Part shown: positions 2,927-57,357 of the stretch, one piece after another
Numbering within the stretch: the stretch's first letter is position 1
How the letters are laid out: each line of letters starts with the position of its first letter
Origin: Candidatus Omnitrophota bacterium
GTDB taxonomy: Bacteria > Omnitrophota > Gorgyraeia > B26-G9
Reading direction: 5' to 3'
NCBI GenBank assembly: GCA_043826565.1
Contig: JBDRPX010000021.1
Coordinates: 18,022-82,021 of the forward strand
DNA: 64,000 nucleotides
The notes under the pieces: generated by a model
Told to the model about the DNA's origin: nothing
What the model saw: the letters and a program-made list of their open reading frames with translations, nothing else
The model's database searches: none
Translations under genes and position numbers: made by a program

Positions 2927-4447
2927 ATGAAACATAAAAATAAAGCAAAAGTATATCTGGCCGGAGTCGGCCCGGGCAATGATCGGTTGATTACTCAGAG
3001 AAGCTTAGATTGTATCCGGGAAGCGGATGTGATTGTCTATGACCGGCTAATGCCGGAATCTCTGCTTAGCTATAAAAAACCAACAGCGAAGTTGATTTAC
3101 GTGGGAAAATCTCCGAAGAAACATATTGTTCCGCAGGAAAAGATAAATAATTTACTAATTCGCCAGGCTAAAAAAGGTAATATTGTCGTCCGTTTAAAAG
3201 GCGGCGATCCGTTTTTATTCGGACGGGGCTCAGAAGAAGCCTTGGTTTTGGCTAAAGCGGGAATAGAGTTTGAAATTGTTCCCGGAGTAAATTCCGGGTT
3301 TGCCGCGGCAGCTTATGCGGGGATACCGCTTACTCATCGGGGAGTGTCTTCTCTGGTAACTTTTGTTACCGGTCATGAAGACCCCGCGAAAAAAGACAGC
3401 AGTGTGGACTGGCCTTTACTGGCAAAGACCTCCGGGACATTAGTGGTTTTTATGGGTATGGCCAGGCTGGCTAAAATAATTGATTCTTTAACCCGCAACG
3501 GAATGAATAAAAAAACTCCGGTGTGTGTCGTTCAGCAGGGTAGTTTGCCGGCACAGAGATCTGTTGTCGGAACTTTAGCAAATATCGCGGAAAAGGTAGA
3601 AAAAAATAAGCTGACGAATCCGGCGGTAATAATTATCGGTAAAGTTGTTGATTTAAAATCAAAGATCGACTGGTATGAAGGAAAACCTTTATTCGGAAAG
3701 AAGATCTTAGTTACCCGTCCGCACAAACAAGCCATGGGATTTACGCGTAAACTGCAGGATGAGGGAGCGCAGACAATAGAATATCCGTTAATCGAAATAG
3801 CTGCGGAGAAAAAAATATCCGGGCAATTGCTGATGCAAAAAATCAAACAGGCGGACTGGACAGTGTTTACCAGCCGCAATGCCGTGGATATTTGCTTTGA
3901 TATTTTGGCCCGGATTAATAAAGACGCGCGGATTTTTCAAAACGTAAAGATCGCGGTAATCGGAGAGGGCACAAAGGAATCTCTTTATCAGCGGGGCATT
4001 ATCGCGGATCTGATCCCCCGAAGATTTGTTATGGAAGGCTTACTCAGTGAATTAAAAAAATTAAATATAAAAGGTAAACGGGTTTTTATTCCGCATTCTA
4101 AGCAGGGACGTCCCATATTAACTAAGGGCTTAAAAGAGCAGGGAGCTTTAATTGACGAGTTGTTTATATATAATATTCAATGCCCAGCTAAGTCTAACCC
4201 CGCAGGATTAAAACAGTTATTAAAACAGGAAAAGATCGATTTGATCACCTTTACCAGTTCCAGCTGTGTGCATCAGTTTATGAAAATGGCGGCTAAGGAT
4301 AGAGAAATATTAAAGAAACAGGCTTTTTCGGTTATCGGCCCGATTACCGAAAAGACTTTACAGGACTATGGATATAAAGCTGAGGTAGTTGCCAAGGTGT
4401 ATACTATTGACGGCTTGTGCAAAGCAATAAAGGAGTATTATCGATGA
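2927..4447 (+). CDS. cobA: uroporphyrinogen-III C-methyltransferase / uroporphyrinogen-III synthase fusion (CobA/HemD)
   Basis: The N-terminal SUMT domain carries VYLAGVGPGNDRLITQRSL...VVRLKGGDPFLFGRG. The C-terminal roughly 250 aa is HemD-like. Total length is 506 aa. Confidence 0.85.
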   Translation: MKHKNKAKVYLAGVGPGNDRLITQRSLDCIREADVIVYDRLMPESLLSYKKPTAKLIYVGKSPKKHIVPQEKINNLLIRQAKKGNIVVRLKGGDPFLFGRGSEEALVLAKAGIEFEIVPGVNSGFAAAAYAGIPLTHRGVSSLVTFVTGHEDPAKKDSSVDWPLLAKTSGTLVVFMGMARLAKIIDSLTRNGMNKKTPVCVVQQGSLPAQRSVVGTLANIAEKVEKNKLTNPAVIIIGKVVDLKSKIDWYEGKPLFGKKILVTRPHKQAMGFTRKLQDEGAQTIEYPLIEIAAEKKISGQLLMQKIKQADWTVFTSRNAVDICFDILARINKDARIFQNVKIAVIGEGTKESLYQRGIIADLIPRRFVMEGLLSELKKLNIKGKRVFIPHSKQGRPILTKGLKEQGALIDELFIYNIQCPAKSNPAGLKQLLKQEKIDLITFTSSSCVHQFMKMAAKDREILKKQAFSVIGPITEKTLQDYGYKAEVVAKVYTIDGLCKAIKEYYR

Positions 4448-5655
4448 TCAATTTCACTAAATTATTAGGGGGCAAACCCAGTGTTTCCGACGCTTTAAAA
4501 GCCGTAAATAAAACCGGGCTTGATCATGCTTACAGCGAATCAAATGTGCCCAGCCCGATCGTGGTGTTTAATATTACGCGGCGGTGTAATCTGGACTGCC
4601 GGCATTGTTATCTGGAGTCTGAAGATAAGCAGTATCAGGGAGAGCTTTCTTTAGATCAGATAAAGAAGGTCGTTGATTCTCTTAGTAAAATGCAGGTTCC
4701 GGTGCTGCTGCTTTCCGGAGGAGAACCTTTAGCGCGTAAGGATATTTTTAAAATAATTGATCATGCTAAAGCCGTGAATTTGCGTATCGGCTTATCTACA
4801 AATGGAACATTGATCACGAAGCAGATGGCTAAAGATTTAAAATCAGCCGGAGTCGATTATGCCGGAGTAAGTATTGACGGCTTAAAAGATATTCATGATA
4901 AGTTCCGGAATTTACCCGGAGCATTTGATCGGGCCGTGAACGGGATCATTAACAGTTTAGAAGCAGGGATTAAAACCGGAATCAGATTTACCGTAAGTAA
5001 GGTAAATTATAAAGATCTTCCCAGTGTATTGGACTTATGTATAAAGGAACAGGTTCCGCGTTTTTGCATGTATCATTTGGTTTATACCGGAAGAGGAGAA
5101 GAACTGGTAGCTCAGGATATGGATAATGGGCAGCGCCGGGAAACTGCCCAGCTTTTGATTGACCGGGCGATAAAATATAATGAAAAAAAATATAATTTTG
5201 AGATGCTTACCGTGGATAACCATGCCGACGGAGTATTTATTTATAACTATCTAAAGAAACACGCTCCCGGGCGTGGACAGGAAGTCCTGGAGATCATGAA
5301 AACACACGGCGGATGTTCTTTGGGCAATAAGATCGTGGATATTTCTCCTTCCGGAGAGGTCTATGCCTGCCAGTTTTGGCATAAGGATTCTCTGGGAAAT
5401 GTAACGGAGAAAGATTTTCTGGATATATGGTATAATAAACAGAACCATAAACTGTGCCAGTTCCGGGATAAAACCGGGCTTTTAAAAGGAAAATGCGGCC
5501 GCTGTGATTTTAAAGCTTATTGCGGAGGCTGCCGGGTGCGGGCTCAGGTGGTGCATAATGATTTTTGGCAGGAAGACCCCTGTTGTTATCTGACTGATGA
5601 TGAAATAATTTTTGATACAGAAAGTAGAAAATTGAAAGTTGAAAGTTGTAAATAG
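4444..5655 (+). CDS. radical SAM/SPASM-domain protein, AhbD/AhbC/NirJ-like (alternative heme biosynthesis)
   Basis: The CNLDCRHCY radical-SAM motif is present, with a Cys-rich SPASM C-terminus (CQF...CGRCDFKAYCGGC). The start was moved to ATG 4444, which has AGGAG 8 nt upstream and an ATGA overlap with the cobA stop. Genomic context is hemA-hemC-cobA/hemD. Confidence 0.7.
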   Translation: MINFTKLLGGKPSVSDALKAVNKTGLDHAYSESNVPSPIVVFNITRRCNLDCRHCYLESEDKQYQGELSLDQIKKVVDSLSKMQVPVLLLSGGEPLARKDIFKIIDHAKAVNLRIGLSTNGTLITKQMAKDLKSAGVDYAGVSIDGLKDIHDKFRNLPGAFDRAVNGIINSLEAGIKTGIRFTVSKVNYKDLPSVLDLCIKEQVPRFCMYHLVYTGRGEELVAQDMDNGQRRETAQLLIDRAIKYNEKKYNFEMLTVDNHADGVFIYNYLKKHAPGRGQEVLEIMKTHGGCSLGNKIVDISPSGEVYACQFWHKDSLGNVTEKDFLDIWYNKQNHKLCQFRDKTGLLKGKCGRCDFKAYCGGCRVRAQVVHNDFWQEDPCCYLTDDEIIFDTESRKLKVESCK

Positions 5656-13552: not shown

Positions 13553-13780
13553 TATAGGAATTAGGTTGTTAGTTATTTCGATTATTATTAAAAAATATAT
13601 TTTGCCACTCGGGTACGATTTTTCTTGCGAACGCAAAAAATTGTCTAAAAATCGTCTCCCGGCCTTACGGGCTCGACGATTTTCTTACGCCTTTTTTTGC
13701 TAAAATCGTAACTCGTTCTAAAATATATGTATTAACAATTACTAACAAATGTTAATATATTTTTGTTATATTGTATTGCT

Positions 13781-13810
13781 AATTTGCAATCTGGAATTTG
13801 CAATGTGCAA
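13781..13810 (+). promoter_or_regulatory. AATTTGCAAT-CTGG-AATTTGCAAT direct-repeat element, related to the TTTGTAATTTGG motif at 24024 and 45378
   Basis: The sequence aatttgcaatctggaatttgcaatgtgcaat lies in a divergent intergenic region. Confidence 0.3.
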
Positions 13811-13862
13811 TAATTAATTGTACAATCATAGTAACAAATCGGCAGGTCTATTGCAAATAAAA

Positions 13863-13946
13863 CCCGCCATAAAGATTGGCGAGGTTCAATTCACCCAAAT
13901 CACTTATGTTCATGTCATTCCATAAGTGATGGGCTCATTGAAGGAG
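13863..13946 (+). promoter_or_regulatory. conserved structured leader element, family 1, copy A
   Basis: Hairpin 1 (CCCGCCAuaaagauUGGCG) is followed by GAGGUUCAAUUCACCC and then hairpin 2 (aUCACUUAUG-UUCAugucaUUC-CAUAAGUGAu). GGCUCAUUGAAGGAG follows and ends 8 nt before ATG 13954. The architecture recurs at 22333, 36481 and 50906. Confidence 0.6.
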
Positions 13947-13953
13947 AAAGATC

Positions 13954-14274
13954 ATGGCAAATGCTTTAATGCGTATCTGGGCGGAACGGGATATTGATGA
14001 GGTAAAGAAACACCTTTTATTAGCCGGGGAACTGAGTGCTAATTGTGATAATTGTCAGGAATTGGGAATTAATTTTATGAAGGAAGCGGTGTGCCCGTCC
14101 TGCGGCACTGCTTTTAAATATATTGCTTTACGCAAGAAAGACAGCTTTCGGGAAACCCAGAATATGATCGCCCGCCTAAAAGAAAACCGGCCCGATTTAA
14201 CGATCCTTGATTATGAGGATATTAAACGAGCCTGCGCTAAATCAAAAGCGAATGATATTTTCAGGATGAAATAA
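13954..14274 (+). CDS. hypothetical Zn-ribbon protein (CxxC...CxxC)
   Basis: Length is 106 aa, with CDNC and CPSC pairs. There is no known family match from memory. Confidence 0.45.
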   Translation: MANALMRIWAERDIDEVKKHLLLAGELSANCDNCQELGINFMKEAVCPSCGTAFKYIALRKKDSFRETQNMIARLKENRPDLTILDYEDIKRACAKSKANDIFRMK

Positions 14275-14323
14275 TCGGGTTCATTTACAGGATGTAAAAG
14301 CTTTGAACGGGATATTTTCGGTT
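14205..14323 (+). repeat. 119-bp direct repeat, copy 1 (last 23 codons of the upstream ORF plus a downstream hairpin motif)
   Basis: Identical to 14871-14989 by eye. Confidence 0.85.
14276..14311 (+). promoter_or_regulatory. conserved hairpin motif, family 2, copy i (CGGGUUCAUU-[UUACA-gga-UGUAA]-AAGCUUUGAACGGG)
   Basis: It starts 2 nt after the stop of the Zn-ribbon ORF and ends 44 nt upstream of the mgtC ATG. Related copies are at 14942 and 55007. Confidence 0.55.
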
Positions 14324-14355
14324 GAAAAATAGTGGAAAATTAGAAAGGGATAAAA

Positions 14356-14835
14356 ATGATAATAGATAATATACTTAATATTTCACCGTTTAGCTGGGTG
14401 GAGATAGGCAGCGCTTTAATTGCCGGGACAATCGTTGGGGTAGAAAGACAGATTTCCGGCAAACCTATTGGAATCAGGACAAGTATTCTGATTTGTTTAA
14501 GCACTTATATATTTACAACTTTCTGCAGTTTAACCACTCAGGCAACTCCGGATACCTCGCGGATAATCGGACAGATAATTACGGGAATAGGTTTTCTGGG
14601 AGCTGGAGTGATCCTTACGCGGGACGGAATTGTTTTAGGAGTGACTTCCGCGGCATGTATCTGGATATTAGCGGCCATAGGAATAACCATCGGATTAAAC
14701 TATCCTTTTACCGGCATCAAATTATCTTTATTAGCTGTTGTAATATTGACCGGTATTGATAATTTGGAAAAACGTATTCCGTTTTTAAGTAAAGGCGCAT
14801 ATCGTAAAAAAACTAAAGAAAGAAAAGAGCTATAA
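14356..14835 (+). CDS. mgtC: MgtC/SapB family membrane protein
   Basis: WVEIGSALIAGTIVGVERQISGKPIGIRT is the MgtC family signature. Length is 159 aa, with about 4 TM helices. Confidence 0.75.
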   Translation: MIIDNILNISPFSWVEIGSALIAGTIVGVERQISGKPIGIRTSILICLSTYIFTTFCSLTTQATPDTSRIIGQIITGIGFLGAGVILTRDGIVLGVTSAACIWILAAIGITIGLNYPFTGIKLSLLAVVILTGIDNLEKRIPFLSKGAYRKKTKERKEL

Positions 14836-14870
14836 TAAATCACTAAAGAAAACAGGCTCAATTTAATTAC

Positions 14871-14989
14871 CCTTGATTATGAGGATATTAAACGAGCCTG
14901 CGCTAAATCAAAAGCGAATGATATTTTCAGGATGAAATAATCGGGTTCATTTACAGGATGTAAAAGCTTTGAACGGGATATTTTCGGTT
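14871..14989 (+). repeat. 119-bp direct repeat, copy 2
   Basis: Identical to 14205-14323. It ends at the rpmB stop codon (on the - strand). Confidence 0.85.
14942..14977 (+). promoter_or_regulatory. conserved hairpin motif, family 2, copy ii
   Basis: Same sequence as copy i. It sits between the duplicated gene fragment and the 3' end of the convergent rpmB. Confidence 0.55.
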
Positions 14990-15215
14990 AAGCTTTGGTG
15001 ATTTTTCCTGAGCGGATACACGCGGTGCACACACCAGCTTTTTTCTTAGTTCCGTTAACGAGTATTCTAACGTTCTGAAGATTAGGTAGAAACCGACGTT
15101 TAGTTATCCCGGTAATCTTTATCCCTACTCCGCCTTTAGTTTTTGCTAAGCCGCGATGAGCATAAGACCTTCCAGCTACTGGTCCTTTTCCGCATATTTC
15201 ACAAATGTTTGCCAC
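14988..15215 (-). CDS. rpmB: 50S ribosomal protein L28
   Basis: [10 protein letters not shown]...[33 protein letters not shown] matches the L28 family. Length is 75 aa. Confidence 0.85.
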
Positions 15216-15446
15216 TTTGTACCTCCGGTTATTGTCTTCATATAAGTTATCACAAATTTATATCATAAATGCATATCTTTGTCAATGCTTTTGGACGCAT
15301 TATTTTCTTACAACAATCGCCGGATCAGGCTGCTTTTTAGGCACAAGCGCGGCATAATTAAAATAAATTTTCTTATCTCATTGTTCTTAAAGGTGTTATG
15401 AGAATTGCAGTCTTTTTGAAATACTTTAAAAAAATGCGTCAAAAAG

Positions 15447-15475
15447 TTGAAAAAAAGCAAAATGTGTGGTATACT
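15447..15475 (+). promoter_or_regulatory. sigma-70 promoter with extended -10 (TTGAAA-17-TGgTATACT)
   Basis: TTGAAA at 15447-15452 is followed by a 17-nt spacer and TATACT at 15470-15475, preceded by TG. It lies about 75 nt upstream of ATG 15550. Confidence 0.5.
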
Positions 15476-15549
15476 TTACTACCTTTGCTTAACTTTTACT
15501 TAACTTATTTTAAATCTTATAGTTATAGCACAATTCCACGGAGGTAATA

Positions 15550-18500
15550 ATGTCACAGAAAAAGGCGGGTTTCCAACGAGTATTTAAAAACTTTTTTGTT
15601 ATTTGCCTTATCAATTCCGTATCTTTACTTAGTATATTACCTACGTATGCTCTGGTTACAGACTCAGACAATAGATCTTCCCAAACTCCTACTCTTTCCC
15701 CGCGGGTTAATCTTGATACCGCAAAAATTCAAGGGTTATTTATGAGACCGATGGATTTTTCCGCGGCCGGAATCAATTATTATATGAGTATCCCGGAGCA
15801 GATGTTTACTTTTAGCGGCCAAGCAGTGGGAACCGGTTTAGCTGATGAGCTTACCTTGTTAAACGGACAGAAGCCGGAAGATGTTATTAAGCATATCCTG
15901 CAAAACCCGGGATTATACGATCAGATAGCGCCGATTATTCTAGCGCAGGACCGGATGACGAATAACTCCGGGTATCATATTGACCGCAGATGGGCGGAAG
16001 TTTTTAAGCATGAAGCCCTAAGAAGGGCAGCTAACCGGTTAAGGGGCCGGGATATTATTTTTCTGCAAATGGAATATGAATTATCCGCGGAATTTTTGCA
16101 AAAGTTTGAGAAGCATCTTATGGAAATGTATTGCTGTACTCAGGAGGAAGCAAGATACGCGGTTGGGCAATTCGCAAAACTTCAGATGGCCGGAGGATTA
16201 GGCAGTTTTAAACCGGACTTTGTCGGCGGTTTTTTTGATGATTTAAAAAAATTCTGGGGTGAAATTGAAGCGCGGGAACGTTTACATGTCATGGGAATTC
16301 TTTATGCCAAAGCGATTAAAGGAGAGGGAGATTTAATTAATGATCGGCGGCTTGATCCGGTCAAAGAGAAGATTGAAATAGTTCGTAATGAAAAGGCAAA
16401 AGCGGCAATTGTTAAAGAGCTTACGGAATTAATAAACAATCATGCGATAGATGGAGTCGTCGATGACGCTCTGGGCAAATTGATTTCAAATTTACGGCAG
16501 ATTTTAAGAGAAGGCGATGGAAAAATTCCGGAAAAGCTGGAAGCCCTTTTGGAAAAATCAAAAAATCATTCCGGAAATAAGAATGTAGAAGATGTCATAT
16601 TGCAGGTTAAGCAGATAATGTCTACTTATGGCCGACGGGCAGAGGGTGTGCATGAACTTGTGGGCGCGGCTATTGATTCCTTAGAAGAGATTGCCCGGTA
16701 TGACGTACCTGTAGATGCGGAGGGGTTGGATACTGTTACGGTGGTAATGTATAAAAATCCCTGGTCTGATTTAAATGAATATTGGATGTATTGCCCGGAA
16801 GTTTTTCAGGAAGCTTATCCCGGAAATAGTGATGATCACTTTAGAGCAGTGCAGACTTATGTTTATCGCGATGTATGTATGCAGCATGCGGCTTTTCTTT
16901 CGGAGAAAAAGGCGATTGGAGATCATGTGATCTTATCCAGCAGTGAGACAAGTACGGCTTTGGCAAATCCGTTTATTGCTAATCCTGATTCAGAAAAATA
17001 CGGTAAAAATGAAGGCGGTATGCGCCGGAGAATTTTGCAGATGCTGGCGAGAAAAGTTGATCTGATCCATTTATATAATCATACGATTGTTCCGGCGGGA
17101 TTAAACAAACCGCCGGCAAATATGTTTGAAGTTGCCAGGATCGCGTCTAAGTTTGGATTTGTTGTGCGCAAAGAAAATGATAAATGGGTTCTTGATCTGC
17201 GGACCTTAGGCGGAGAAACCGTTGATCTGATCACCGGGTGTTCCGACGCGCATACAGATATTTGCGCGGAGCAAGATGATTTGTATGCCCGGTTCTCATC
17301 ACAGGTTAAACGGGATTATTTATTCGGAAACAGTGAAGGGTCTGATGTTGAGCGCTGGCAGGGAGAGGATATTAAACGGGTTATTAATAAGTATACAACA
17401 CTTTTGATCCGTAAAGGTGATCTTGATGTAAAGGTTTTACAGGAAAGAATCAGCCCGTATCCGGAATTATTTTTGGCTTTAGATAAGCCGGAGAATAAAA
17501 AACTTAAAGCCCGGCTTATTCAGGAACTTGTTCAGGCCAAACGAATACAAAAACAGCGTTTTATTGATGAGCTGAATAAAGGTACATTTTTTATGGATCC
17601 AAAATCTGAATTAGCAAATATCCAGGGGGATATGAGTATAACTATTGACGGGAAAAAAGTCGCGCTTATTGACCGTCCGTTTATTACTTTTGTCCGTAGG
17701 ATGGTTGAATATAAGTGCAGTAATGATGTTTTGGATGCTATAGGTGCTCCGTCTGCAGACAAAGACCTAAGCCCGGAAGAATATCAAAAGATGCTGGATG
17801 GGGTTTTGGATAATTTGGAGATGCAGGAAAACCGGGACAAGATTAAAAAAAGCGGCGCGGTATTTTTTATCGGCGGCAGAAAATTCAGTGATTTTTCCGA
17901 ACAGCAATATTTAAGGATCCAGGAATTAATTAAACGTGACCCGGAAATGAAAAAACATATAATTTTTATTTCCAACCATAATATCCATACCTCCCATTTT
18001 ATCCAGCAGGGAACGGATTTCGGCGGAATGTTAGCCTGGGAGGGGATGGAAGCCGGCCCGACCAGTCCCAGCAATGCCGGAGAAAATTTCTCGGCAAAAT
18101 TCGGGGTGCAGGATGGAGATAATAAAGAACGTCTGATTCCGGTGGAAAAAGATGCAAAAGGAAAAGTTATCCGGGGTACGGGATATCATGTTAAATACGG
18201 TAATGAATATGCTCAAGAAGGCCAGGCCCAGCGCAGGAAACCGGATCACGCGTCTTTTCTCGAGCAATTAGAAGCCGCTTGTAATGATTATTTTACTGAT
18301 AACGGGCGCGCGTATCATATGGTCGCGTTTAATAATTTATGGCTGGAGATGACCCAGGGAGATATCCGGAATCAGGCTGCCGGAGAAATAATGTTATTTG
18401 ACGCGGCGATACAGCGCAAACAGCAGGAACAGCTAGAAATTGATACCGCAATTGATGCGTTTGTTGATTCAGGCCCGATAGAGCTGAGCAAAGAACAAAT

Positions 18501-23937: not shown

Positions 23938-24023
23938 ATAGACAATTTACAATGAACAAATTACAAACAATATATAATATTAAATATTTAAATATACAAT
24001 ATTTGTTTATTGTTGCTTGTTAT

Positions 24024-24058
24024 TTGTTTGTAATTTGGAATTTGTATATTGTAATTTA
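24024..24058 (+). promoter_or_regulatory. TTTGTAATTTGGAATTTGTATATTGTAATTTA operator-like repeat element upstream of the flavodiiron gene
   Basis: It is near-identical to 45378-45411 and sits within a larger AT-rich imperfect palindrome spanning 23945-24060. Confidence 0.45.
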
Positions 24059-24077
24059 AAAAAGAAGGATTACATTT

Positions 24078-36480: not shown

Positions 36481-36574
36481 GTCCGGGCACCAAAAAGATG
36501 TGCCACGGACATAAATTCGCCCAGATAACTTATGTTCACTTAGGTCCATAAGTTAGGGGCTCATTTAGGAGGGG
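36481..36574 (+). promoter_or_regulatory. conserved structured leader element, family 1, copy C
   Basis: Hairpin 1 (GUCCGGGCACC...GUGCCACGGAC) is followed by AUAAAUUCGCCCAG and then hairpin 2 (AUAACUUAUG-UUCAcuuagGUC-CAUAAGUUAg). GGGCUCAUUUAGGAGGGG follows and ends 7 nt before ATG 36582 (hcp). Confidence 0.55.
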
Positions 36575-36581
36575 ATAAATC

Positions 36582-45377: not shown

Positions 45378-45411
45378 TGTTTGTAATTTGGATTTTGTTT
45401 ATTGTAATTTA
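45378..45411 (+). promoter_or_regulatory. TGTTTGTAATTTGGATTTTGTTTATTGTAATTTA operator-like repeat element upstream of metX
   Basis: Near-identical to 24024-24058. Confidence 0.45.
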
Positions 45412-45435
45412 TTAAAAAGAGGTCAAGACATTAAG

Positions 45436-50814: not shown

Positions 50815-50905
50815 TGACAGAGATGTCTTTTGATCCCTCGAAGGAGGGAAAAAGGCATCTCTTTTGTATTTAGGTCTTTGACATAAAAATATAAATATCG
50901 GAAAA

Positions 50906-50990
50906 CCCGCCAAAAAAATGGCGAGGTTAAATTCGCCTGCGCACTTATGTTCACGATGTTCCATAAGTGCTGGCTCATTGAAGAAAGGGG
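50906..50990 (+). promoter_or_regulatory. conserved structured leader element, family 1, copy D
   Basis: Hairpin 1 (CCCGCCAaaaaaaUGGCG) is followed by AGGUUAAAUUCGCCUGCG and then hairpin 2 (CACUUAUG-UUCAcgaugUUC-CAUAAGUG). CUGGCUCAUUGAAGAAAGGGG follows and ends 4 nt before ATG 50995. Confidence 0.6.
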
Positions 50991-50994
50991 AAAG

Positions 50995-51747
50995 ATGAAT
51001 AGATTTATGATTATAGTGTTGAGTAGTGTTATATGTATGGGGATGTTTGCAAATCCGGCGCAAGCTGAATATAAAGACGGGATTTTACCGGCACTGGAAA
51101 TTGAGGCATCGGGAACTTTGGATGTGTATTCACGTTATGTATGGAGAGGTTTTACCTTGGACACTGATCCGGTGGTACAGCCAGGATTTAATTTAAGCGG
51201 TTATGGGGTGACGTTATCGTTCTGGAGTAGTTTTGATGCTGATAGTAATGACGGAACAAATTCCGATGAAGTTGATTTTGTGATAGATTATACTAAGGAA
51301 TTCGATGGGTTTAGTGTTTCCGCGGGGCACACAAATTATGATTTCCCAGGAGTTGCTACTTATAGTAAAGAATGGTATGTGGGAGCGTCATTTGATGTAT
51401 TGCTGGCGCCTTCGATCACTTACTACCAGGATTATGGTAAAGAAGAAAACGGCGGAGCAGACGGCAGGTATATCAGCTTAGGTATTTCCCATAGTTTCAC
51501 AATTGTTGAAGATCCGTCCATAACTCTTGATCTGGGCGCGAACATCGGATTTAACAATGAATTGTTTATTAAAGGAGATGGCGGTGATTATCTGTTAACC
51601 GCGGGATTAACTGTTCCTTTGACCAAGACATTATCAATGTCTCCGGTTATGGGTTACGCGATACCGTTTGGTGATTTAGAAGATGTTAATGTCGGCAGCC
51701 AAAAGAACAGGTTCTATGCCGGACTTAGTTTAGGATTTGATTTTTAA
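50995..51747 (+). CDS. outer-membrane porin-like beta-barrel protein (first gene of the amt-glnK operon)
   Basis: The signal peptide is MNRFMIIVLSSVICMGMFANPAQA and the C-terminus is ...LSLGFDF. The start was moved to ATG 50995, because the track's upstream start runs through the conserved leader. Confidence 0.5.
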   Translation: MNRFMIIVLSSVICMGMFANPAQAEYKDGILPALEIEASGTLDVYSRYVWRGFTLDTDPVVQPGFNLSGYGVTLSFWSSFDADSNDGTNSDEVDFVIDYTKEFDGFSVSAGHTNYDFPGVATYSKEWYVGASFDVLLAPSITYYQDYGKEENGGADGRYISLGISHSFTIVEDPSITLDLGANIGFNNELFIKGDGGDYLLTAGLTVPLTKTLSMSPVMGYAIPFGDLEDVNVGSQKNRFYAGLSLGFDF

Positions 51748-55139: not shown

Positions 55140-57245
55140 ATGTTTAAAGCTAGTGAAATTTTTGGAGAATTGACGTTTAGTAAAAAAGCAATGCAAGAGA
55201 AGATGAGCAAGGTGGTTTATAATAAGCTCATTTCTACGATTGAAAGCGGAGTGCCGCTGGATCAATCTATTGCCGGAGATGTGGCACATGCGATGAAAGA
55301 ATGGGCTATGGAAAACGGAGCCACACATTTTACCCACTGGTTTCAGCCGCAGCGCGGGGGAACAGCGGAGAAACACGATGCGTTTCTTAGCTATGGTAAA
55401 AACGGTGAGATGATCGAACGGTTTTCCGCAAAACAGCTTATTCAGTCTGAACCGGATGCTTCTTCTTTTCCCTCCGGCGGAATTCGTTCCACTTTTGAAG
55501 CGCGCGGGTATACGGCATGGGATCCGACTTCCCCGGCCTTTTTATTGGAAGCCGGCGATACGAAGACATTGGTAATCCCTTCGGTATTTTTGTCATGGAC
55601 CGGGGAGGTTTTGGATATTAAAACTCCTTTACTGCGTTCAATGAAGTCATTAAACGAGGCGACATTATCTTTACAAAAAGTTTTAGGGAATAAAAAAGTA
55701 AACCGTATTAAAGTTTTTGGTGGCCCGGAACAGGAATACTTTTTGTTTTCAAAAGATTTATATCAAACGCGCCCGGATTTGATTGTTTGCGGAAGAACGC
55801 TTTTCGGCGCGCCTCCGGCAAAAGGGCAGCAGATGGAGGATCATTATTTTGGTTCAATTAATGCTACTGTTATCCAGTTTATGGAAACTTTTGACCGAGA
55901 GTTGTATCGCCGGGGGATTCCGGCAAAAACCCGCCACAACGAAGTCTCTCCGAACCAGTTTGAAATTGCTCCTTTATATGAGGAAGCAAATCTTGCCATA
56001 GATCATAACCTTCAGCTTATGGAGATTATGAAAAAAGTAGCGGATGAGTTTGATATGGTTGCGGTTCTTCATGAAAAACCTTTGGCCGGAGTAAATGGTT
56101 CCGGAAAGCATTTTAATTGGTCCATCGGAGATAATACCGGAGAAAATTATTTTGAACCGACAGGTTCTCCGCAGAAAAAGATAATGTTTTTGCTGTCCTT
56201 AGGCGCGATTTGTCTGGGAGTCAGTAAGTATGGCGGCTTACTGCGCGCGGCTGTTGCCGACGCGGGGAATGATCATCGTTTGGGGGCAAATGAAGCTCCG
56301 CCGGCAATTATCTCTGTGTATCTGGGGGAATATCTTGATGCCTTATTGGATGAAATTGAAGGCATCGGAAAAGTAACCGATAAGAAAATGTCCGAGATCT
56401 ATCTGGGGGTGCAGGATTTGCCGAAAGTTGCTAAAGATACATCAGACAGAAACAGAACTTCGCCGCTGGCGTTTACCGGAAATAAGTTTGAATTCCGCGC
56501 GGTTGGTTCAACTCAAAATTGCTCGGAAGCCGCGACAGTGCTGAATTTGCTCATGGCTTATGGTTATGATGAGATAGCCAAAAGGATAAGTGCTCATAAA
56601 GGCAGTGTTGATGTTAAAGCAAAAGCAATCGCGGTATTGGAAAAAGTATTAAAAGAGACTAAACATGTGCGTTTTGAAGGAAACAACTATGATGAGAAAT
56701 GGCACAAAGAAGCGGCAAAACGCGGTTTACCGAACACCAAGAATACTCCGGAAGCACTGGAGTTGTTCTTTAAAAAAGATGCGATCAAACTGTTTGAAAA
56801 ATTCGGTGTTTTAAGTGAAAAGGAATTACATTCAAAAATTGAGATCAGACTTGAAGCATATGTTAAGACAAAAGATATCGAGTTAAAAACTGCTTTAAAT
56901 ATTGCCCGGACGCTGGTATTGCCGGCAGTAGCTGATCAGATAACCTTGCTGGCTAATGCTAATACGGGAGTAAAAGCCGCCGGAGCAAAACCTAAAGGAT
57001 TAAGCGCGGACATCAGAACACTCAACGGCTTATATAATGATATTAAGTCCGGTATTTCCGAATTGGAAAAAGCCATGATTGTTTGTGAAAAGCAGTCGGA
57101 GATATTAAAGGCGGCAAAAGGTTATGCCAGCGTGGGAGCTGCGGCTTTAAATAATTTACGCGATGCGGTAGATGAAGCGGAAGAACTTATTGCCGACGAT
57201 TTATGGCCGATGGCAAAGTACCAGGAATTACTTTTAGTACTATAA
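55140..57245 (+). CDS. glnN: glutamine synthetase type III
   Basis: At 701 aa the length is characteristic of GSIII. A GS catalytic core is present mid-protein. Confidence 0.8.
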   Translation: MFKASEIFGELTFSKKAMQEKMSKVVYNKLISTIESGVPLDQSIAGDVAHAMKEWAMENGATHFTHWFQPQRGGTAEKHDAFLSYGKNGEMIERFSAKQLIQSEPDASSFPSGGIRSTFEARGYTAWDPTSPAFLLEAGDTKTLVIPSVFLSWTGEVLDIKTPLLRSMKSLNEATLSLQKVLGNKKVNRIKVFGGPEQEYFLFSKDLYQTRPDLIVCGRTLFGAPPAKGQQMEDHYFGSINATVIQFMETFDRELYRRGIPAKTRHNEVSPNQFEIAPLYEEANLAIDHNLQLMEIMKKVADEFDMVAVLHEKPLAGVNGSGKHFNWSIGDNTGENYFEPTGSPQKKIMFLLSLGAICLGVSKYGGLLRAAVADAGNDHRLGANEAPPAIISVYLGEYLDALLDEIEGIGKVTDKKMSEIYLGVQDLPKVAKDTSDRNRTSPLAFTGNKFEFRAVGSTQNCSEAATVLNLLMAYGYDEIAKRISAHKGSVDVKAKAIAVLEKVLKETKHVRFEGNNYDEKWHKEAAKRGLPNTKNTPEALELFFKKDAIKLFEKFGVLSEKELHSKIEIRLEAYVKTKDIELKTALNIARTLVLPAVADQITLLANANTGVKAAGAKPKGLSADIRTLNGLYNDIKSGISELEKAMIVCEKQSEILKAAKGYASVGAAALNNLRDAVDEAEELIADDLWPMAKYQELLLVL

Positions 57246-57260
57246 ATAACTGCGGCAAAA

Positions 57261-57295
57261 GAATAGGGCTTTACTTTTAAGCCCTATTCTTTTTA
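57261..57295 (+). terminator. intrinsic terminator after glnN
   Basis: The hairpin GAAUAGGGCuuuacuuuuaaGCCCUAUUC is followed by UUUUUAUU. Confidence 0.7.
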
Positions 57296-57357
57296 TTAGT
57301 TAATGCTGTAAAATTAAGCAAAAAATGAGTGTTTTTTAATAACGGGTAGAAAAACAA

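Follow-up and report, generated by a model that had tools for sequence, protein, structure and literature searches.

An mgtC gene between a zinc-ribbon gene and rpmB in an Omnitrophota genome: an insertion scar with a plausible integron connection

Gene cassettes can leave integrons and come under the control of a host promoter, which has been demonstrated experimentally in E. coli and Vibrio, and to our knowledge such exits have rarely been traced in environmental genomes. Integron integrases cut at the triplet GTT. Concerted evolution by gene conversion is a further process known in bacteria, with tufA/tufB and the rRNA operons as examples. Insertion outside integrons has been shown experimentally, with IntI placing cassettes at genomic GWT ('attG') sites, and the authors suggested that attC is easily deleted after genomic insertion (bioRxiv 10.1101/2022.09.11.507474). 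Cassette insertion at secondary sites is also discussed in PMC4889954.

Here we describe an mgtC gene bracketed by direct repeats in a 64-kb stretch of DNA from a Candidatus Omnitrophota bacterium, the whole of which is called the window below. The locus resembles cassettes that have inserted outside integrons, at secondary or attG sites, and were later 'domesticated': it has a promoterless ORF, a short leader, a junction whose GTT is consistent with GWT, a close homologue that is a real cassette, a putative attC that is mostly gone and probable expression from a host promoter. It differs from them in that a 145-bp duplication of the target flank, of a kind that IntI does not make, stands in place of attC, and in that the window holds no integrase or other cassette and attC-like sequence of no more than 16 nt. 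The same geometry, in which direct repeats of host sequence bracket the insert and excision restores the locus, would result from templated insertion or if a circle with a fragment of the upstream zinc-ribbon gene (ZnR) integrated in the Campbell manner; here, however, no source circle with mgtC and the ZnR 3' fragment is evident, and perfect and diverged parts alternate within the repeats as a mosaic. With concerted evolution between nearby direct repeats the locus shares a sharp border between an identical tract and diverged homology and a partner under selection, whereas the second partner is a 145-nt pseudogene fragment 666 bp away and conversion is something that we infer rather than observe. 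Our overall reading, to which we assign a probability of roughly 0.55, is that an old, cassette-derived and promoterless mgtC was inserted between ZnR and rpmB, that the flank was duplicated and that 119 bp of the duplication were later converted.

The mgtC locus and its ancestral state

Direct comparison of 14205-14323 with 14871-14989 revealed exact identity over 119 bp, not extendable at either end, so that the first-pass annotation was correct in the coordinates and description of a perfect direct repeat around mgtC. It had also read each copy as C-terminal codons of ZnR followed by an inverted repeat, which is borne out: each contains the last 22 sense codons of ZnR and its stop codon, then 49 nt with an imperfect inverted repeat. 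The ORF and repeat coordinates likewise confirm that the second copy is a 3' gene fragment lacking the 5' part and that it adjoins the stop codon of the convergent, minus-strand rpmB, ending 2 nt inside it. The geometry of repeat, mgtC segment and repeat holds as well, with mgtC carried on the 547-bp spacer between the 119-bp copies (14324-14870). What had been overlooked is that the 26 nt to the left of the 119-bp repeat are also homologous (20/26 identical, 6 mismatches), and a repeat search returned the same pair as 145 nt at 96% identity (14179-14323 versus 14845-14989). The chance expectation for a 38-nt probe from the repeat was 0.00 occurrences. The features of the locus are listed here.

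13954-14274, plus strand: Zn-ribbon ORF (ZnR), 106 aa, source of the duplication through its 3' end (ORF list; weak Zn_ribbon_6 match)
14179-14204, plus strand: copy 1, left 26 nt of the duplicated unit, codons KENRPDLTI; functional, with the derived synonymous CGG
14205-14323, plus strand: copy 1 of the exact 119-bp repeat, ZnR 3' end and 49 nt of 3' UTR, last bases CGGTT
14267-14320, no strand: hairpin (imperfect inverted repeat), copy 1; fold -13.8 kcal/mol, z -1.3
14324-14355, plus strand: short mgtC leader, 32 nt, with ribosome-binding site GGGATAAAAATG and without a promoter of its own
14356-14835, plus strand: mgtC, encoding a 159-aa membrane protein of the MgtC/SapB family, the inserted gene (PF02308, E=5e-29)
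14829-14844, plus strand: GCTATAATAAATCACT, putative remnant of the 5' (R'' box) end of attC, overlapping the TAA TAA stops
14845-14870, plus strand: copy 2, left 26 nt, decayed pseudogene piece KENRLNLIT, with the ancestral AGG kept
14871-14989, plus strand: copy 2 of the exact 119-bp repeat, ZnR 3' fragment without 5' part, and hairpin 14933-14986
14988-15215, minus strand: rpmB (ribosomal protein L28), convergent, ancestral neighbour of ZnR (Pfam Ribosomal_L28; synteny)

Two novel junctions delimit the insert (a slash marks the join). The left one reads CGGTT/GAAAA and has a site-specific look. The right one reads CACT/AAAGAAAAC, that is, ...AAATCACT/AAAGAAAAC, and joins the attC-like start to ZnR position 14179, with microhomology of at most 2-5 nt.

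ZnR belongs to a small family that is confined to Omnitrophota and the PVC group and conserved in Omnitrophota. We found 14 homologues at 56-100% identity, in which the CxxC pairs and the RPDL..D.ED block (RPDL..DYED) are invariant. At the distinct related Omnitrophota loci with enough flank to judge (ZnR identity 55-71%), the gene order was a spermidine-synthase-like membrane protein (minus strand), ZnR (plus) and rpmB (minus); in 12/12 of them ZnR was directly convergent with rpmB across a gap of 0-72 nt, without mgtC. The first-pass annotation had deduced this ancestral order from the window, and it is what these 12 loci display. From this comparison, mgtC is best read as an insertion between ZnR and rpmB in the lineage of the window, and copy 2 as its scar. 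Scans of genome and metagenome contigs returned nothing above 78% ZnR protein identity, and among them no sister with an empty site or with diverged repeats.

Exceptions to the direct ZnR-rpmB arrangement were also found. In a 65% relative (L002) a non-coding insert of 280 nt (4319-4597) lies exactly in the ZnR-rpmB spacer, L018 has a 365-aa reverse-strand ORF there (647-1744), and in L004, the closest ZnR relative (78%), a degenerate RAYT-like transposase remnant lies downstream of ZnR, followed by yicC and not rpmB. Given these different insertions, the spacer 3' of ZnR is a recurrent insertion point. The L002 insert is G+C-richer and contains long inverted repeats. In L004, positions 740-1135 hold the remnant resembling a REP-associated tyrosine transposase (..IIMPNHLHGILII..), between the G+C-rich inverted repeats GGGGCGCCGCTTGCCTGCGCC and GGCGTAGGCAAGCGGCGCCCC. 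The L018 genome also holds the closest MgtC (83%), at another locus.

The ZnR of the window ends in ...DIFRMK*, whereas its relatives end in ...DIFG*. Dropping one A after TTC at position 14263 (and 14929) restores TTC GGA TGA (F G stop), so the window ZnR bears a 1-nt insertion at its very end, in both repeat copies.

The hairpin within the repeat had been named as a member of a family and proposed as a possible bidirectional terminator in the ancestral arrangement, and neither proposal found support. At up to 3 mismatches the 64-kb window contains only the two copies inside the repeat, and a dispersed repeat, MITE or REP hairpin family was rejected for want of copies at unrelated loci in the 64 kb. 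Compared with shuffles of its sequence the hairpin shows no superior fold (z -1.3 for the plus and -1.9 for the minus strand), its stem is A/T-rich, and it was not called in a simple intrinsic-terminator scan; a weak terminator role between the convergent genes is possible but unsupported. It matched no Rfam leader such as the M-box. Its 3' arm, CGGGATATT..TTT, aligns with the 3' UTR of the 78% relative L004, which makes the hairpin native 3' UTR rather than a mobile element. Since its GTT, where the left junction falls, lies outside the stem and a complementary R'' box is absent, the hairpin is not attC-like. Elsewhere in the window, a hairpin at 57248-57301 has a perfect 15-bp stem (AAAGAATAGGGCTT..AAGCCCTATTCTTT) directly after an ORF ending at 57245, and looks like an ordinary strong terminator, unlike the weak repeat hairpin.

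Relation of mgtC to integron cassettes

The mgtC product matched Pfam MgtC (PF02308) with 101.5 bits against a gathering cutoff of 31.4 (E=5e-29). The membrane domain of the MgtC/SapB family is matched full-length, and the protein is a short, 159-aa form that scores below the Salmonella/E. coli equivalog cutoffs. Its closest relatives come from other Omnitrophota (83% and 78% identity), in unrelated contexts. On contig locus L023, a divergent intI is followed downstream by an array of ORFs that all point the same way, and the eighth of these encodes the 78% homologue, P0017. This intI scored 418.9 bits against TIGR02249 (cutoff 265), and a canonical attC site (...YAAC-hairpin-GTTR...) is present in every intergenic space of the array, including both sides of mgtC. 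As P0017 is a true cassette, MgtC belongs to the integron cassette pool of the Omnitrophota phylum. The suggestion in the earlier annotation that an mgtC cassette was inserted therefore fits better than could have been known from the window, since the 78%-identical MgtC is a true integron cassette.

The integron itself (L023 4056-13200, JBDRCZ010000073.1) is a complete chromosomal integron in another Omnitrophota MAG. Its IntI has 443 aa, with about 100 extra N-terminal residues before the TIGR02249 match, and it carries at least 8 cassettes with homogeneous attC sites, most of whose products are without a Pfam match.

Two attC finders based on regular expressions and folding proved too strict and missed even the true L023 sites; the L023 intergenic regions were therefore read directly and a position weight matrix was used. 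Window positions 14829-14844 (GCTATAATAAATCACT) match, in register, the R''-box end of the L023 mgtC attC (CCTACAACAACGCACT) in an alignment that places TAA TAA opposite CAA CAA. Against the matrix of L023 attC 5' ends this stretch scored 10.1 bits, a value reached at 20 of 127,970 window positions; when the mgtC cassette's own attC was left out of the matrix, it scored 8.4 bits (46 of 127,970 positions as high). The scores resemble those of genuine attC sites, as against 0.8-5.0 bits for the same region in non-cassette MgtC homologues. After correction for the positions searched, the chance probability of the attC-like 16 nt is about 0.02, for a sequence that is A/T-rich and a hypothesis that was post hoc. 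In the R''-like stretch (GCTATAAT) AAC is changed to AAT, and ZnR-derived sequence follows. At the other end of the insert, the left junction falls directly after GTT and the ancestral site GGTTAAGC (GTTAAGC) fits GTTRRRY, a trinucleotide being weak evidence. The gene has further traits of a cassette, namely a promoterless ORF, a short 5' UTR (32 nt) and a homologue in a bona fide integron. Taken as a reading of sequence, an origin of mgtC in the integron-cassette pool is suggested but unproven, and on balance we think it probable.

The alternative is that there is no integron link, and that illegitimate or microhomology-mediated recombination placed a copy of an ordinary chromosomal mgtC in the spacer, the attC-like 16 nt and the GTT being coincidental. 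Most close MgtC homologues do occur in non-integron contexts; three of them, L006, L008 and L024, are not in integrons. A search for a full attC site at the mgtC 3' end (R''-L''...L'-R', RYYYAAC...GTTRRRY) found no attC-like fold, tblastn with the L023 IntI detected no intI in the 64-kb window, and the window contains no attC array or hairpin either. The attC-like score is moreover only moderately unusual, and the same spacer took unrelated insertions in L018, L002 and L004. Such copying would nevertheless leave to chance the in-register alignment, TAA TAA against CAA CAA, to the homologous cassette's R'' box and the 8.4-10.1 bits as against 0.8-5.0 in non-cassette homologues, and the gene unit is minimal, consisting of a ribosome-binding site, the ORF and about 10 nt. 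We therefore consider it unlikely that integrons had no part in the event. A foreign origin judged by base composition received no support, the GC content being 39% for mgtC and 41% for the window.

Age of the duplication

The identity of the 119-bp copies had been taken to imply a recent event. This can be upheld for the homogenisation of the 119 bp alone; the duplication appears to be old, given the 6 mismatches in the adjoining 26 nt and their interspecies-like distance. All 6 mismatches of the 145-nt homology sit in the leftmost 26 nt (Fisher p=2e-5; (26/145)^6=3e-5). In this stretch copy 1 differs from copy 2 at 6 positions and from the orthologues L004 and L001 at 6 and 5, whereas the 54 nt that follow show 0 differences between the copies and 6-9 for the orthologues. 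Derived changes are found on both copies. The Arg codon is AGR in 14/14 outgroup sequences and in copy 2, so the CGG of copy 1 is derived and synonymous. Three substitutions are private to copy 2, namely CCC>CTC (P>L), GAT>AAT (D>N) and ATC>ACC (I>T), and the residues that they alter are conserved or invariant across the family.

Derived changes on both sides, together with a distance like that between species, go most of the way to showing that the duplication is old and not a recent event, with a split about as deep as between species. Since the separation, one copy has therefore evolved under purifying selection and the other as a pseudogene. Copy 2 was also considered as a foreign functional allele, which was rejected because conserved or invariant residues are altered and 5 changes are non-synonymous against 1 synonymous. 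The mismatch pattern, taken by itself, makes later intragenomic gene conversion the most likely source of the perfect 119 bp. After the copies had diverged, conversion would have made them identical again over the right-hand 119 bp, as far as the homology extends, and the left 26 nt would record the divergence.

A single recent event, in which insertion and duplication occurred together, would account for the perfect identity of the 119 bp, and both junctions may show microhomology (GGTT and CT/AAAG). The imperfect 26 nt would then stem from the joining itself, for instance because a template switch was followed by error-prone synthesis or because the junction was homeologous. Yet 6 changes in 26 nt far exceed any polymerase error rate and the changes are not strand-coordinated. 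Copy 2 has the ancestral AGG and the functional copy 1 the derived CGG, a pattern that a cluster of mutations made at joining on the new copy cannot explain. We regard a recent origin of the whole structure as improbable.

The window ZnR and MgtC are 100% identical to consecutive proteins (MFH2137989.1 and MFH2137990.1) of a Candidatus Omnitrophota MAG. The structure is known from this single MAG assembly, whose deposited record is the only one with both proteins. It is conceivable that the assembly has misled us, either because a 119-bp repeat was misthreaded, the true state being an empty ZnR-rpmB site and a circular or tandem 666-bp mgtC unit, or because near-identical copies were made identical by bubble-popping or polishing. 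The dependence on one metagenome-assembled genome and a repeat length of 119 bp, near read and k-mer length, speak for such an error. However, both novel junctions must exist in real molecules in order to assemble, and coverage sufficient for assembly would hardly be attained by a 666-bp circle that does not replicate. In addition, sister MAGs of the data set come from MEGAHIT contigs made at k=141, longer than 119 bp, a setting that may not apply to this assembly. An artefact seems improbable.

Formation of the scar, expression and significance

We propose that a promoterless mgtC was inserted into the short ZnR-rpmB spacer of an Omnitrophota lineage. The left junction would have formed at GTT beside the rpmB stop codon (ancestral ...TTTTCGG/TTAAGC), while the right junction would have joined an attC-like stretch of about 16 nt, at the stop codon of mgtC, to ZnR position 14179, leaving at least 145 bp of the left flank (the ZnR 3' end and its 3' UTR hairpin) on both sides of mgtC. 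The gene probably came from the cassette pool of the phylum by insertion at an attG-like GTT, with most of the attC hairpin lost or bypassed at the second junction or afterwards. IntI recombination makes no 145-bp target duplication, so a second, unobserved step is needed. In one option the insertion was normal, and replication then switched templates and skipped the folded attC by copying the 145 nt that lie upstream. Another option is a one-ended event with the second junction made illegitimately. In a specific form of the latter, IntI would join the cassette at GTT and a template switch at the folded attC would land 145 bp upstream, to which we give only a slim chance. The result could be a cassette outside an integron, excisable by homologous recombination between repeats kept identical by conversion. 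If it were true, it would offer a natural route to cassette domestication and possibly to new flanking recombination sequences.

A transposon with a short target-site duplication of fixed length was also considered and rejected: the 521-bp insert holds only mgtC, no terminal inverted repeats were found on it, and the duplication is 145 bp. It is hardly credible that the repeat is itself a functional recombination site and the repeat-mgtC-repeat unit a newborn mobile cassette with an 'attC' made from a chromosomal 3' UTR hairpin ending in GTT, since for all that the direct repeats each have a hairpin and end in GTT, and that GTTAAGC at copy 2 fits GTTRRRY, the complementary R'' box (RYYYAAC) is absent, the GTT lies outside a stem that folds no better than shuffles, 70 nt of the repeat are plain coding sequence and no integrase is nearby.

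The 32-nt leader upstream of the mgtC ATG contains no usable sigma-70-like site. The gene starts 81 nt past ZnR on the same strand and lacks its own promoter, so it is probably transcribed together with ZnR, from the promoter and leader of that gene. No Rfam covariance model matched at gathering score in the window, nothing relevant appeared at E<=1 in 13600-15600, and no M-box or mgtCBR-type leader was found for mgtC. Together with the low equivalog score, the lack of such a leader makes an analogy with the Salmonella mgtC leader unwarranted. The ZnR fragment of copy 2 lies in the mgtC reading frame (14836-14940) with TAA TAA in between, which we judged to be coincidence, the stops standing where the homologous attC has CAA CAA. 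Because these two consecutive TAA stops intervene, translational read-through out of mgtC into the fragment was rejected.

A conserved leader of about 95 nt occurs three times in the window (13860-13953, 36486-36581 and 50900-50995), with a start codon at the end of each copy. The copies stand in front of ZnR, of the gene for a hybrid-cluster (Prismane) protein and of an operon that encodes an unknown protein, an ammonium transporter and P-II. The leader consists successively of a G+C hairpin (CCCGCC..GGCGAGG), AAATTCGCCC, a hairpin with a perfect stem of 8 bp (CACTTATG..CATAAGTG), GGCTCATTGA and a ribosome-binding site; in the second copy the arms of the G+C hairpin are different yet still complementary. 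No Rfam match was found for it, and it is absent from the loci of relatives that were examined. It may be a nitrogen-related leader or operator, and mgtC would be under the control of the copy upstream of ZnR. Furthermore, an A/T-rich motif, TTTG[CT]AAT..TGGAATTTG[CT]A, occurs four times (13781-13808, 23942-23978, 24025-24063 and 45378-45416), in intergenic positions upstream of genes and once inverted, and could be a shared promoter or operator element.

In conclusion, the insertion scar at this locus is real and its general kind is known, and a connection with integrons is plausible. At 119 bp, the perfect direct repeat has sufficient length for a precise, RecA-dependent deletion of mgtC, which would restore the ancestral locus. 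Practical consequences are modest. The perfect repeat proves to be an unsafe clock, as the adjoining diverged homology points to an old event and a secondary identity. Overall, the locus provides a clean natural example, from a poorly studied phylum, of a small accessory gene placed between core genes, with a scar whose details are legible. Should the integron link be real, the locus would be a case in which a cassette left its integron and became fixed under a host promoter in Omnitrophota.
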